Below are positions 20,874 through 29,212 of a DNA stretch of 64,000 bases, one piece after another. A model generated the notes under the pieces. The model had not been told where the DNA came from. It saw only the letters and a list, made by a program, of their open reading frames with translations, and made no database searches. The stretch lies in the NCBI GenBank assembly GCA_963833985.1, contig CAWIAD010000002.1, forward strand, positions 2,400,001-2,464,000, written 5' to 3'. Source of the stretch: an uncultured Planctomycetaceae bacterium (GTDB lineage: Bacteria; Planctomycetota; Planctomycetia; Isosphaerales; Isosphaeraceae). A program made the translations under genes and the position numbers. Position 1 is the first letter of the stretch, and each line of letters starts with the position of its first letter.

Positions 20874-21543
20874 CGAACCGCTCCTCCGTGAGTGAGAACC
20901 GACCTGGATCCCGCAGGCCAACCACATCCCAGGAGCTTCATGGCACGCTCCCAGGGTCCCGAAGCGCGGTCCCGAAGCTCCCAGCCGTAACCAGTTTATC
21001 ACACCAATTCGAGAAAGACGCGACCGACTCGCGAATGTTGTACGGCCTGGAAGGCAATCCGAGATGCCTTGTTTTGGGTACTCCTGTATTCTATGGTCCG
21101 GACCGCTCAACGCAAGTCCACCTCAGCAGGACCCGGCGCCTCGAGCCGGTTCCGTGGGATGATCTGGGGAGCCTTGATGCCGCCCGGGCCGTTTCTCGCT
21201 CCCAGCGACGCTTGCCGGTAGCGACGGGCGAGTCATTTCACATGTGAGAGTGCACCCGTCGAGGAAGACTTGCCCGGAATGGCTTCGTTCCGTCCACCCG
21301 GCATCAAACCCATCGGACGCTAACCCTTTGTCTGATTGAAGTTAAATCTCCATTTTCGGTGGCTTCGTTTTTGACATTTTCTTCTCGAGATGACCGAAGG
21401 CGGGCCGCGGTGCCGGCCATAAGTCCCGCGGGCCAGCGCGCCGCCTGAGTGCAGAGGCGTCGCGCTGGTCTGAACCATCGACCGAATTGTCAAAGTGCAT
21501 TGGCACAGTGCCGTTCTATTCAGTCTACGATCGGAACGGCGGG

Positions 21544-21690
21544 CGCTTGAAGGATCCCTCACGGTTTGCTCTCCTTGTGCCGGCGCGGTCGGATCACTTC
21601 ACCTCAGGCGTTCCATGCGTCTGCTCTTCTCGTCGTTTCACTATCAGCTGGACCTCTCCGGCGGTGGGCGTTGTGCACCCGTGACCTGCA
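21544..21690 (+). pseudogene. Copy 1 of a leader plus 5' fragment of a GT4-like glycosyltransferase
   Basis: Aligns with 25165..25312 (ATG 71 nt into both copies); reads MRLLFSSFHYQLDLSGG and then loses frame. Confidence 0.65.
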
Positions 21691-21699
21691 CGCCGCGCG

Positions 21700-22070
21700 G
21701 GAGGCCTCAGGCGCCAGCCCGACCCGCACGTTGCCGCAATTTACACATCGCCACGGCGCTGGTCCGCAAGTCCTGGCTATGGGGCGCATGGCCACGTGCG
21801 CCAGCGCCCTGGATCCGCGGCGCATGGCCACGTGTGCCTGCGCCATGGACTCTGCGGCAGATGGCCACGTGCGTGAGCACGTGGTTTTCACGGGCGCAGC
21901 CTCCAACCTCGGGCGTAAGCCCGACCCGCCCCGCGCCGCATCACGCTTATCACCCCGGCGCTGGTCCGCCAGTCCCGGCGCTAGGCGCGCATGGCAGATG
22001 GCCACGTGCGTGAGCACGTGGTTTTCACGGGCGCAGCCCCCAACCTCGGGCGTGAGCCCGACCCGCGGAC
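21700..22070. repeat. Composite repeat region with REP-like hairpins
   Basis: 74-bp direct repeat 21856..21929 / 21993..22066 (2 mismatches) ending in hairpin TCGGGC-GT(A/G)A-GCCCGA; ATGGCCACGTG at 21788, 21824, 21861, 21998; GGCGCTGGTCCGC at about 21755 and 21957. Confidence 0.8.
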
Positions 22071-22320
22071 CACGAATGGCGGAGCACGAATGGGGCCAGC
22101 CAAGGTTCACGGTGGCGTGGGAGCCGTTCGCGCGGGGTCGGTGTCCGAAGCTGCCCCTGTCCGCCTGGCTTGCCGTGGTCAAGCCGCCTGGTACTGCATC
22201 CGTTTCGGAGCCGCATGTGGATCGCCCCCACGCTGCCACGGGCACTCCGCCCGCTCGATGCTCACGACCTTGTGCGGGCGAGTATCTTGTTCGTACTGGC
22301 GCTCGCAAGCGTGAGCATTT

Positions 22321-22409
22321 GTAGGGTGCGTCAAGCGCAGCGTCGACGCACCAGTATTTCAGCCTGTTCCGCGAATTGTTGCGTCGTCGCAGCGCTCGGC
22401 ACACCCCAC
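22321..22409. repeat. REP doublet (REPIN-like), GTAG family
   Basis: GTAG-GGTGCGTC-N12-GACGCACC at 22321..22352; inverted degenerate copy (reverse complement GTGGGGTGTGCCGAGCGCTGCGACGACGCAA) ending at 22409. Confidence 0.8.
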
Positions 22410-22675
22410 CAGAACTGGTCCATCATCTTCTCCCCTTGCTCTTCGTTGTCTCTGTGGTTCCATGGTTTTTCTGTGACCAGGGTCCTCGCCCGATGCCCGG
22501 GCGACGCCGAGGCCGCATCGCGCTCGCGAGCAAATCGATAATCCCGTGCTGGTCCCACTCGCCAGGGGCTGGACCGGCTCTCTCCGCCACGCGGTCTGGC
22601 GCGTCCCGAGCTTGCTTGCAGGGTAATCGAAGGAGCCCTGTCATTCCCCCGCCCGGGAATGATACGGTTCTGTCC

Positions 22676-24997: not shown

Positions 24998-25164
24998 GTT
25001 CGGTTCTCCGGGGAAAGTGAGCCCGGACGACGGTCGCGTCCGGACGTGATGGACCGTTGACGTCCGGAACTGATGCTGGCTGCGCCGTGAGATTCCGTCA
25101 AGTGCCGCCTCGAATAGCCAGGGAGCGCCAGGATGAACGGGTGACGAACGTCCGGAAGCGTAGC

Positions 25165-25418
25165 CGCTTGCGAGATTCCTCGCGGTTTGCTCTCCTTATG
25201 CCGGCGCGGTCTTATCACTTCACCTCAGGTGCCCCATGCGCTTGCTCTTCTCGTCGGTTCACTGTGACCTGGACCCCTCCGGCGGCGCGGCGCTGTGCAC
25301 GCGCGAGATGCTCGAGCCGCTGGCGGCGCGGGGGATGGACTGCCGGGCGCTCACGATGGGGATCATGGACCCCGAGCGCGAAACATCGCTCGACGAGTTC
25401 AGGGCTGCGACATTCTGA
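25165..25418 (+). pseudogene. Copy 2 of a leader plus 5' fragment of a GT4-like glycosyltransferase
   Basis: ORF 25236..25418 (MRLLFSSVHCDLDPSGGAALCTREMLEPLAARGMDCRALTMG) resembles a GT-B N-terminus and stops where a REP begins. Confidence 0.65.
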
Positions 25419-25419
25419 C

Positions 25420-25630
25420 GGTGCGTCGTCGCTGCGCTCGACTCACCCTCCGATTGGGCCTTCCGGGCCCGGCCGGCCCGGCGATCCTCGACCCTGGCCG
25501 CGGAACGTCCGACATCTGTAGCGTGTGTCGAGCGTAGCGCCGACACACCGATTCACGGCCCCGGCATCCGCCGCAGGGCCCGGGAACATCCGACAATTGT
25601 AGGGTGTGTCCAGCGCAGCGACGACGCACC
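25420..25630. repeat. Three REPs of the same GTAG family as 22321
   Basis: Inverted copy 25420..25451; forward copies 25518..25549 and 25599..25630, each preceded by GGAAC(g/a)TCCGACA (81-bp period). Confidence 0.82.
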
Positions 25631-25821
25631 GATCCGGTGACAGCGGGGATGGACCACCAAGCTTTGCTGGGTCGGCGATGGTCAGAAAAAGCGGATCGGG
25701 CCACAGGATTCACTTGACCTACGCCGACGCCGGATTTACCTTCAGCGCTTGTCCCGACAACGCATCTCCTGATCTGAACTCTGTGACCCGTCCGCTCGCG
25801 GCTCTCCATTCAGTGATCACG

Positions 25822-26249: not shown

Positions 26250-26882
26250 ATGTTTGGAAGTCATAAGAATTTGTTCTTCGGGTGCATCTTCGCGGCCGGG
26301 CTCCTTGTGGCCAACAAAGTCTTCGAGGGACTGCTGAGGCAACTCTTTCGCAAGCCCGCTCTAGACGAGTCGACACAGAGGCAACTGCGTCATTTCGATG
26401 AATTCCAAAAGCACATAAACACACTTACGGTAGATAATGCGAGGGCGGCCGTCCTAGCTCTGCTACGAGATGGCAAGCTCTCCTGTGTTCCCAACGAGGG
26501 ACTTTCCCATCCGGAATGTAACTGCCTGCCTGCCGCGGCGAGGCAACTGCTCAGCGCCTATCATTGTATTGATTCCAAGGACATGTGCTGGCGCGTAGCG
26601 TTGGGTCAAGGCCATTGCCGTGACCGTGTAGAAAGCCACACCGTGGTCTTATCGGACGAATACGGGGGAACATTTGTCGTCGGTCCCTTCTCCGACGAGG
26701 TCTTCGAGGTGATCGGTACCGATCGAGACACACGCCTAGAACCTTTTGCCCGAAGTATATTTCATTGCGTGCTTATCATGTACAGCGATGAGCAGGACGA
26801 GCTCACCGATGGGCGTATGACCGGGCTGGTACCAGATAACGAGGAGGTCGAGGGGGACATAAGGAGGTCGAGGGGGACATAG
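26250..26882 (+). CDS. Hypothetical protein, possible SUKH/SMI1-like immunity protein
   Basis: Visibly more AT-rich than flanking core genes; LPAAARQLLSAY and terminal FARSIFHCVL echo SUKH-fold motifs; follows the RHS remnant. Confidence 0.5.
   Translation: MFGSHKNLFFGCIFAAGLLVANKVFEGLLRQLFRKPALDESTQRQLRHFDEFQKHINTLTVDNARAAVLALLRDGKLSCVPNEGLSHPECNCLPAAARQLLSAYHCIDSKDMCWRVALGQGHCRDRVESHTVVLSDEYGGTFVVGPFSDEVFEVIGTDRDTRLEPFARSIFHCVLIMYSDEQDELTDGRMTGLVPDNEEVEGDIRRSRGT
26843..26881 (+). repeat. 19-bp direct repeat x2
   Basis: GGAGGTCGAGGGGGACATA at 26843 and 26863, overlapping the end of the upstream ORF. Confidence 0.85.
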
Positions 26883-26964
26883 TGAATTGCGACGGTAGGA
26901 TGGACAGGATGGGGCGTCGTGCTTCGTTAATCGATGATTCGCGGGTTGGCTGTCAGGTTCGAGG

Positions 26965-27215
26965 AAGAAATTGGTGTCAGGAGAAATTGGTGTCAGAGGA
27001 GAAATTGGTGTCAGGAGTAATTGGAGTCAGTTCATTTTTCTTAGAGTAATTGGTGTCAGTTCATTTTTCTTAGGGAGTAATTGGTGTCAGTTCATTTTTC
27101 TTAGGAGAAATTGGTGTCAGAGGAGAAATTGGCGAGAAATTGGTGTCAGTTCATTTTTCTTAGGAGAAATTGGTGTCGAGAAATTGGGAGAAATTGGTGT
27201 CAGTTCATTTTTCTT
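26965..27215 (+). repeat. Left array: 12 head-to-tail units with a common 5' end and variable 3' truncation
   Basis: Units start at 26965, 26981, 26999, 27015, 27044, 27075, 27105, 27123, 27134, 27164, 27178, 27188; full unit GAG(A/T)AATTGGTGTCAGTTCATTTTTCTTAG; lengths 10-31 bp. Confidence 0.95.
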
Positions 27216-27243
27216 GACGCAAGCCCGCATCTCGCCGTAACGT
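27214..27243 (+). promoter_or_regulatory. Putative sigma70 promoter giving a leaderless transposase mRNA
   Basis: TTGACG (27214) - 18 bp - TAACGT (27238); ATG 27251 lies 7 nt after the -10 with no Shine-Dalgarno; the -35 starts in the innermost repeat unit. Confidence 0.55.
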
Positions 27244-27250
27244 GGGCATC

Positions 27251-27973
27251 ATGGGACGTCTTCCTCGCGCCACCGACGACGGTCTGGTCTACCACGCGAT
27301 GAACCGCGGGAACAACCGCGCCGAGGTCTTCGTCGGCGATGGCGATCATGAGGCCTTCTTCGAGTCGCTCCGGGCTGCGAAGGACCGTTATCCCTTCGCA
27401 CTATTCGGTTATTGCCTGATGAGCAACCACTTCCACCTCCTGCTCAAGCCGAGCCCAGGGCAGTCGATCAGCCGGAACCTCCAGTCGCTCAGCGTGGCCC
27501 ACACGTGGCGATACCACAAGCGGCACCGCACCTCGGGGCACGTGTGGCAGGGCCGCTCCAAGAGCCCGGTGATCCAGGACGATGACCACCTGCTGGTCGT
27601 GCTACAGTACATCGAGGCCAACCCTGTCCGCGCCGGTATGGTCGCCGACCCGAGGGCCTACCGGTGGTCGAGCTATGGCCAGCACGGGCTGGGACTGATT
27701 GACACACTTTTGGACGGTTTCCCCGAGTGGGAGCATCTCGGCCCGTCCGAGGTGGAGCGTAGGCGGCGGTGGCGGGCAAAGTTGCGGTCGGCACAGAGGC
27801 CGGACGAACTGACGGCCGTACGTGAGTCGCTGCGGACCGGACGCCCGCTGGGCTCTCCCGCCTGGGTCGAGGGAGTCGCGACCCGATTGGGCATTGACCT
27901 GACCCCGCGCCCGCGGGGCCGGCCACGAAAGGAGCAATCGGCATCGGCCAGAAGTGCCCGAAAAATGAACTGA
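27251..27973 (+). CDS. Y1 (HUH) tyrosine transposase, RAYT/IS200-like superfamily
   Basis: YHAMNRGNNR..VF, YCLMSNHFHLL (HUH), VWQGR.KS, YIEANPVRAGMV (catalytic Tyr), YRWSSY, C-terminal PRGRPRK. Confidence 0.93.
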   Translation: MGRLPRATDDGLVYHAMNRGNNRAEVFVGDGDHEAFFESLRAAKDRYPFALFGYCLMSNHFHLLLKPSPGQSISRNLQSLSVAHTWRYHKRHRTSGHVWQGRSKSPVIQDDDHLLVVLQYIEANPVRAGMVADPRAYRWSSYGQHGLGLIDTLLDGFPEWEHLGPSEVERRRRWRAKLRSAQRPDELTAVRESLRTGRPLGSPAWVEGVATRLGIDLTPRPRGRPRKEQSASARSARKMN

Positions 27974-28420
27974 TACCGATTATCTCCGAAAAATGAACTG
28001 ACACCGATTATCTCGACACCGATTATCTCCCCCAGGGGAGCAATTCCCTGGGGCCACCAGGCCCGATTATCTCCGAAAAATGAACTGACACCGATTATCT
28101 CCGAAAAATGAACTGACACCGATTATCTCTGACACCGATTATCTCCGAAAAATGAACTGACACCGATTATCTCTGACACCGATTATCTTCCTGGGGCCAC
28201 CAGGCCCGATTATCTCCGAAAAATGAACTGACACCGATTATCTTCCCCCTGACACCGATTATCTCCGAAAAATGAACTGACACCGATTATCTCCCCTGAC
28301 ACCGATTATCTCCCGATTATCTCTGACACCGATTATCTTCCTGGGGCCACCAGGCCCGATTATCTCCGAAAAATGAACTGACACCGATTATCTTGAAAAA
28401 TGAACTGACACCGATTATCT
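27957..28420 (-). repeat. Right array: 19 units, inverted relative to the left array
   Basis: Every unit ends in CCGATTATCT on + (starts AGATAATCGG on -); full unit AGATAATCGGTGTCAGTTCATTTTTCGG; + strand unit ends at 27985, 28013, 28028, 28072, 28100, 28128, 28144, 28172, 28188, 28215, 28243, 28264, 28292, 28311, 28322, 28338, 28365, 28393, 28420. Confidence 0.95.
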
Positions 28421-28468
28421 TCCCGGTGTAATTTGCCGGGGAAGATGACATGCGTGCAACCGCCACGC

Positions 28469-28497
28469 TTGGCAATACCGCCCGGTTATGGTATGCT
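28469..28497 (+). promoter_or_regulatory. Putative sigma70 promoter of the TA operon
   Basis: TTGGCA - 17 bp - TATGCT with an extended -10 TG, 24 nt before ATG 28522. Confidence 0.55.
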
Positions 28498-28521
28498 GGA
28501 AATTGAAGGGGAATCATTTAA

Positions 28522-28803
28522 ATGACCATACATTTACCCAACGATCTGGAAAGCCGCCTCCAAGCGGTCGTCCAAAACGGCCGGTTCGCCTCCGTCGATG
28601 ACGCGATGGCCGAGGCCGCACGTCTCTTGCTCCGCGAGATCGACCAACGGCAGCAAGCACAGCCGCACGCCGAGGGGATTGATCCCGGACCCGACCCGTT
28701 CCTTGGCTCCATGCGGGATGCCGCCGACGAGCTAGACCAGATCGTTGCCGACGCCTACCGCAGACGGCGGGAAGACACATGGCGGGATGTCGCCGTTGAG
28801 TAA
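28522..28803 (+). CDS. Putative antitoxin, ribbon-helix-helix/ParD-like N-terminus
   Basis: MTIHLPNDLESRLQAVVQNGRFASVDDAMAEAARLL; small; overlaps the toxin start. Confidence 0.75.
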   Translation: MTIHLPNDLESRLQAVVQNGRFASVDDAMAEAARLLLREIDQRQQAQPHAEGIDPGPDPFLGSMRDAADELDQIVADAYRRRREDTWRDVAVE

Positions 28804-29212
28804 GGCCCTGCTCGATACCGACACCCTTTCCGAGATAAGCAAGGGCGTTAACCTCACCGTCGCCGCCAACGCCACCGCCTACCGCCGGGCCTTTGGACGC
28901 TACACGACCTCGACCGTCAGCGTCATGGAGATCGTGCGGGGATTCCAGCAAAACCAGAGCACTCGCCGCTTACAAGCCTTCGTGGCGTCGCTCGCCACGC
29001 TGGAAATCCTGCCCTTCGACCTCCCCGCCGCCGAACTGGCCGGGCGGATTGCTGGCGATTTGGAACGTGTCGGACGGCCCATCGGCGTGGCCGACCCGAT
29101 GATTGCGGCCATCGCCATGACCAACGGCTTGGAGTTGGTCACGGGAAACACCGCCCATTTCCAACGCATCCAGCAGCTCGGCTATCCGCTCACGCTGGTC
29201 AACTGGCGTTAA
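28796..29212 (+). CDS. vapC: PIN-domain toxin (VapC family)
   Basis: LLDTDTLS, SVMEIVRG, IGVADPMIAAIA, LVTGNTAHF; TTG start overlapping the antitoxin stop (alternative ATG 28787). Confidence 0.9.
   Translation: MSKALLDTDTLSEISKGVNLTVAANATAYRRAFGRYTTSTVSVMEIVRGFQQNQSTRRLQAFVASLATLEILPFDLPAAELAGRIAGDLERVGRPIGVADPMIAAIAMTNGLELVTGNTAHFQRIQQLGYPLTLVNWR

Follow-up and report, generated by a model that had tools for sequence, protein, structure and literature searches.

The right-hand repeat array of this locus raises the question of why three of its units leave the common template and continue with a second, hairpin-forming sequence, and where that sequence came from. In the present study, we analysed a window of 64,000 nucleotides (C2:2400001-2464000 of the assembly, G000), in which a transposase gene was located between two inverted arrays. 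The features on which the analysis rests are listed below in window coordinates.

27242..27973, + strand: Y1 (HUH) tyrosine transposase gene, RAYT/TIRYT-like (ORF and Pfam Y1_Tnp, E 3e-14)
27958..28420, - strand: right array of 19 head-first units, variably truncated (array parsing)
26966..27215, + strand: left array of 12 units in the opposite orientation to the right array, free of intron tail (repeat parsing)
28030..28062, + strand: long insert, very probably the terminal 33 nt of a group II intron, comprising the upper stem of domain VI with its GCAA loop, the branch A and the 3' end
28030..28053, + strand: hairpin of the initial annotation, assigned to the domain VI upper stem-loop (covariance model match, folding)
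28063..28072, + strand: head CCGATTATCT 3' of the long insert, occupying the intron's 3'-exon position (junction matches L003 and L141)
28190..28205, + strand: second copy, last 16 nt of the assigned intron tail, followed by a head at 28206-28215
28340..28355, + strand: third copy, last 16 nt of the assigned intron tail, followed by a head at 28356-28365
28163..28244, + strand: 82-bp block with copy 2, identical to 28313-28394 (repeat family D3)
28313..28394, + strand: 82-bp block with copy 3 (repeat family D3)

The heads of the right array read AGATAATCGG on the minus strand (n = 19). Array parsing confirmed the three odd units described in the initial annotation, at 28029-28072 (44 nt), 28189-28215 (27 nt) and 28339-28365 (27 nt); in each, the head was followed by GCCTGGTGGCCCCAGG in place of TGTCAG, and the longest unit ran through the hairpin. 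This hairpin consisted of a 10-bp stem and a GCAA loop (+ strand, 28030-28053), and its stability was modestly above that of shuffled sequences (z -2.3; 8 of 200 shuffles were equally good). The 18-mer occurred exactly three times in the window, where 0.17 occurrences would be expected even with up to 3 mismatches allowed, and the 16-mer had no further exact copy in the 10.16-Mb assembly. The insert was not a constant sub-repeat, being found in 3 of the 106 units parsed in 9 arrays that were chosen by eye. Both short copies were located within the identical 82-bp blocks 28163-28244 and 28313-28394 and are thus non-independent events. This duplication ruled out three independent captures, and all three tails probably trace to one event. 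The domains I-V, 5' exon and RT that a functional group II intron would have were absent at 28029-28365. No sequencing run contained more than 0.09 of the array words, the 4 of 24 runs examined in detail gave no piece spanning the array, and no RNA run was listed as carrying array words. Two other features of the neighbourhood were recorded. A small ORF and a PIN-domain gene (toxin-antitoxin-like) were located just outside the repeat, both at window 28522-29212 and at L003:6626-7387, and further direct or inverted REP-like repeats of 37-138 bp were found at window 21527-22410 and 25148-25636.

To identify the insert, we searched for counterparts, as the initial annotation had proposed, and found them as intron ends elsewhere. 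The best match in the rest of the assembly was C2:1024971-1025004 (30 of 34 bases), where an ORF-less remnant of a group II intron terminates; the 120 controls (60 dinucleotide shuffles and 60 hairpin-keeping sequences) reached at most 27. Among 52 distinct intact D5-D6 ends, seven were 2 edits from the 33-nt insert (31/33) and three were 3 edits away, in a set whose closest members were mostly collected by likeness to the insert and which is biased accordingly. To avoid this bias, a covariance model and a sequence profile were built from introns chosen by RT similarity alone, 19 sequences entering the covariance model (covariation in 7 of 15 pairs). Within the window, the top match of the covariance model was the insert (19.7 bits, E 0.0076); genome-wide, the insert was not among the 5 matches at E<=1. 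The sequence-only profile (nhmmer) placed it at rank 8 (E 3.6). Rfam RF00029 gave no match to the 33-nt insert, which is without D5, and an Rfam scan of 26500-29000 returned nothing relevant. Since the profile scores were weak, the identity of the insert rests on the direct matches and on the junction register: on the + strand, the insert stops at the intron's last base, and the head then fills the place of the 3' exon. The same junction of intron and head was observed in L003, L141, L042, L103 and L142. Taken together, these results indicated that the insert is very probably a group II intron tail, and the proposal of a foreign sequence joined to the common head was thus borne out. Another genomic match, C2:5457370, lay in coding-like sequence with no D5 and was rejected as chance. 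In addition, a second multicopy group II intron family was noticed at 12 sites in the assembly (e.g., C1:640-722 and C2:1015394-1015476), with near-identical RF00029 scores.

The insert resembles the group II intron 3' end (RF00029) in sequence, GNRA stem-loop, branch A and terminal bases. 5'-truncated introns have been described (PMC7923331), and the insert is like these in having lost all of the upstream intron; it differs from them in that it is only 33 or 16 nt long, lacks domain V, is bordered on the left by an array head instead of its 5' exon and has been amplified as a unit.

The transposase scored 74.1 bits against NCBIfam NF047646 (cut-off 80), and its translation contained NHFHLLL and YIEANP (HUH and Tyr). 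Flanking inverted ends were present, and their core GGTGTCAG fitted GGGGWSAS at 7 of 8 positions. TIRtrons carry a Y1 transposase gene between inverted terminal repeats whose core is of the GGGGWSAS type (PMC3733652; 10.1101/279083). The window element is like these TIRtrons/TIRYT (PMC3733652), which probably correspond to TnpA-Y1 subclass 2.1 (10.1101/279083), in both gene and inverted repeat core. It differs in that its ends have been enlarged to arrays of truncated units and no C-terminal HTH was detected; in the text consulted, the cited descriptions mention neither such arrays nor introns within the ends. A search for a C-terminal HTH (Bac_DnaA_C, HTH_23/28) detected none and yielded only a weak AT-hook (E 0.068), and we therefore classified the element as TIRtron-like instead of assigning it to subclass 2.1.

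We then asked how an intron 3' end relates to the ends of such elements. In the same genome, L003 contained an RT-encoding intron of 2,016 nt, inserted at GTGAACTGACA^CCAATTTCC (also given as GAACTGACA^CCAAT), with TGTCAG in its EBS1 loop; its RT matched Pfam RVT_1 and scored above the cut-off of TIGR04416, and the intron matched Rfam RF00029. In another genome (G009), a sister element with a RAYT 89% identical to that of the window (L141) had its right end interrupted by a full-length intron, at GAAAAATGAACTGACA^CCAATTATCC. For a wider test, we used a target-blind set of 58 loci, in which 40 distinct 5' exons were readable and kin were counted though not independent. The motif [CG]T[CG][AT]CC, which corresponds to the published TIR motif (GGGGWSAS) read in reverse, was fitted at >=5/6 positions by 29 of these 40 exons, compared with 3.2% of random sites, and five target-blind 5' exons ended in CTGACA. 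Of 27 introns parsed for EBS1 (5 further loci were dropped), three had no readable loop, and EBS1/IBS1 pairing was complete (6/6) in 18 of the other 24, compared with a mean of 7.2 and a maximum of 13 in 5000 shuffled pairings. At 44 loci of related transposases, an intron was found in the gene-adjoining end in two cases (L141 and L086) and in an end 0.5 kb off in one (L142), and nearby orphan tails were found in two (the window and L061). In the intron-bearing or tail-bearing ends at these loci, the intron 3' end pointed toward the outer head. These results demonstrated that the ends of Y1-transposase (TIRtron-like) elements are homing sites of this intron clade. Named records with the same intron clade were mostly from Planctomycetota.

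Other introns are known to use repeated mobile-element targets: RmInt1 homes to ISRm2011-2 (PMC4496777), and group II introns are reported at attC sites (PMC7923331). The clade described here is alike in this respect and differs in that its target is the core of a TIRtron-like terminal repeat and its EBS1 varies with the repeat variant. As side observations, the innermost right unit of the window (27970-27975) reads CTGATA where the other units read CTGACA, a change that would disrupt binding of the intron at this site, and a short intron 5' stub was found at GTGACA^TTGCG in L006. This locus, together with L004 (C1:2430.7 kb) and L005 (C1:2448 kb), consists of gene-less facing arrays of the window repeat (L006 at C2:2303.4 kb).

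The growth of the arrays was examined in the same 106 units. In 90 of them, the unit reproduced the element's own end from its head up to some point, followed by <=8 extra bases, mostly purines, and some units extended <=189 nt into the transposase gene. The remaining 16 comprised the three intron tails, mostly parse breaks at variants, and two units with long unassigned stretches. Ordinary units are thus head-first truncated copies of the inward sequence. Because such units copy whatever lies inward of the head, an intron-invaded end would give a head followed by an intron tail. As in ordinary units, each tail had an earlier head as its left neighbour instead of a 5' exon. Heads joined to an orphan tail also occurred at L129/L139, L127/L138, L122/L136, L061/L143 and L125/L137, but among 401 class genomes only two showed the strict head-gap-tail pattern. 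At no locus was a full intron seen to be accompanied, on its outer side, by a truncated tail of its own. A first pattern scan of GTDB gave 0 loci; a looser pattern gave 16 GTDB loci and 9 metagenome loci, none with the insert's D6 variant. The pattern matches L098, L105 and L112 were without D6 and were rejected as chance. In the mostly open-access literature searched, no report of truncated-unit arrays was found.

Several further observations concern these arrays. The unit joints carry 0-8 extra bases, mostly G/A, that are absent from the element end (window 26966-27188 and 27986-28420; L002, L005 and L068). In the right array of the sister element L002 (3741-3815 and 3959-4016), long units contain alleles of the window type that its own gene end lacks, as well as a 74-nt stretch that occurs nowhere else in the genome; these units may represent older states or copying in trans. 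The left-end array L003:2660-3390 contains three copies of the 5' 130 nt of the transposase gene, without a full gene, in units of <=189 nt. Double intron tails arranged as palindromes (head, tail, D6 loop, tail, head), which form REP-like hairpins and whose two heads usually differ, were found at C2 about 6249890-6249960 and in L024, L092, L094, L095, L114, L116 and L119.

A possible mechanism is offered by the BIME amplification model, in which a nick is followed by 3'-OH extension, and attack on the Tyr-5'P end adds a unit (PMC3333891). Unit addition of the kind proposed there for REPtron/BIME by TnpA-REP fits the head-first units of the window, which differ from that system in having no GTAG-footed REP hairpin, a variable unit length and extra purines at the joints. 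By this analogy, the Y1 transposase would nick the head of the element, and the 3'-OH would be extended inward over a variable distance, a step that we infer; the extended end would then be rejoined to the tyrosine-linked head, as drawn in Fig. 7B of PMC3333891. Head-first copying likely read an intron-invaded element end once, placing a head plus domain VI tail in the array, and array turnover then likely shortened and duplicated the tail. We consider it probable that the domain VI tail entered the array once through the array's own copying and was subsequently duplicated.

Two routes of entry were considered. Neither the assembly nor 120 family genomes yielded an exact source intron, and no intact intron combining the insert's D6 variant with this head was found in the 61, 121 and 401 genomes searched. 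The insert's D6 variant (GGGCCACC) preceded a CCRAT exon in none of 12 ends, one of which is probably a double-tail arm, compared with 18 of 35 ends for other variants, both sets being partly pattern-picked. The absence of this variant at this head favours a template switch from an end of another element family. The closest relatives of the insert (L001 and L150-L153) had EBS1 GGACAC, GGACAT or GGACGT and TGTCC exons, and their 3' exon was often CCGGAACTC, which shares CCG with the window head; that end family also occurs empty in G000. In view of the GGACAY-type EBS1, the TGTCC exons, the shared CCG and the frequency of head-only units, we slightly favour entry by template switching, with the shared CC(G) as the crossing point, to an end of the TGTCC^CC family that carried an intron. 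Entry in cis, from an intron once seated in the element's own right end and later deleted, is nearly as probable; the nearest D6 end with a CCAAT exon (L034) is 4 edits away.

The main alternative source of the joint is abortive retrohoming or RT template switching, in which the RNP or RT joins a short cDNA of the intron-RNA 3' end to a free 3'-OH of a head, no DNA end with an intron serving as template, and the array then duplicates the product. Template switching of RTs onto RNA 3' ends is known. The join begins exactly at the intron's last base, head-only units (11 of 50 in three arrays) could serve as primers, and the palindromic double tails resemble snap-back products; 5'-truncated introns are likewise on record (PMC7923331). 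However, the left neighbour of the tails is a head and not the 5' exon GAACTGACA expected from abortive homing, the EBS1 of the closest subtype mismatches CTGACA, and the usual difference between the two heads of a double tail argues against pure fold-back. We therefore regard this route as unlikely compared with the array's own copying.

The initial annotation had suggested that the array records foreign sequence in a spacer-like way, possibly a former target or another element copy. The latter is close to the best reading, whereas a former target did not find support. As a functional memory storing pieces of former targets or invaders, the array would be expected to place foreign DNA at a constant head, as is seen here; the 74-nt stretch of L002, unique in its genome, and the tails in L137, L138 and L143, whose neighbouring heads belong to other end families, could be read in the same way. 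On the other hand, the 31 units of the window hold only one foreign piece, in three related copies, and it is the one sequence expected at the head after intron invasion. Its counterpart is the 3' end of an intron, matched in the register of the splice junction, and does not come from phages or plasmids: searches of viral contigs and phages gave 0 matches each, and the one plasmid match (E 0.6), located in a coding region, was rejected as a source. Unit lengths were irregular, and no effector besides the transposase was found among 7 ORFs scanned. The likeness to CRISPR acquisition is thus confined to foreign DNA beside a constant repeat; the array has no regular spacer length and a single source, which is not phage- or plasmid-derived, and the ORFs scanned contained no Cas genes. 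A functional memory is accordingly very improbable, and the odd units are likely a parasite scar, not a CRISPR-like target record. Equally remote is a chance GC-rich hairpin, terminator or assembly artefact resembling an intron end: the genome-wide profile scores were weak and the runs examined gave no reads spanning the array, but the matches to intron ends exceeded all controls, the junction register was exact and analogous units occurred in other genomes.

Collectively, these findings have several implications. The insert provides no evidence for a new adaptive memory system. The tail serves as a natural tracer of array growth, indicating that copying starts at the 10-bp head and needs no inner repeat, and the copying step may switch templates between ends. 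In the literature searched (again mostly open access), no intron clade tracking TIRtron-type ends was found, so that a clade homing to such ends with EBS1 varying in step appears to be an undescribed intron-transposon pairing. A speculative and rather unlikely extension is an arms race, in which the intron clade retunes EBS1 to the ends, the transposase builds decoys and excises invaders, domain VI scars are left behind and copying across families makes the arrays recorders of mobile elements. If this were true, the arrays would be a natural recorder of mobile-element encounters through end-to-end template jumps. The tail and the intron clade offer direct assay handles for this class of transposases.
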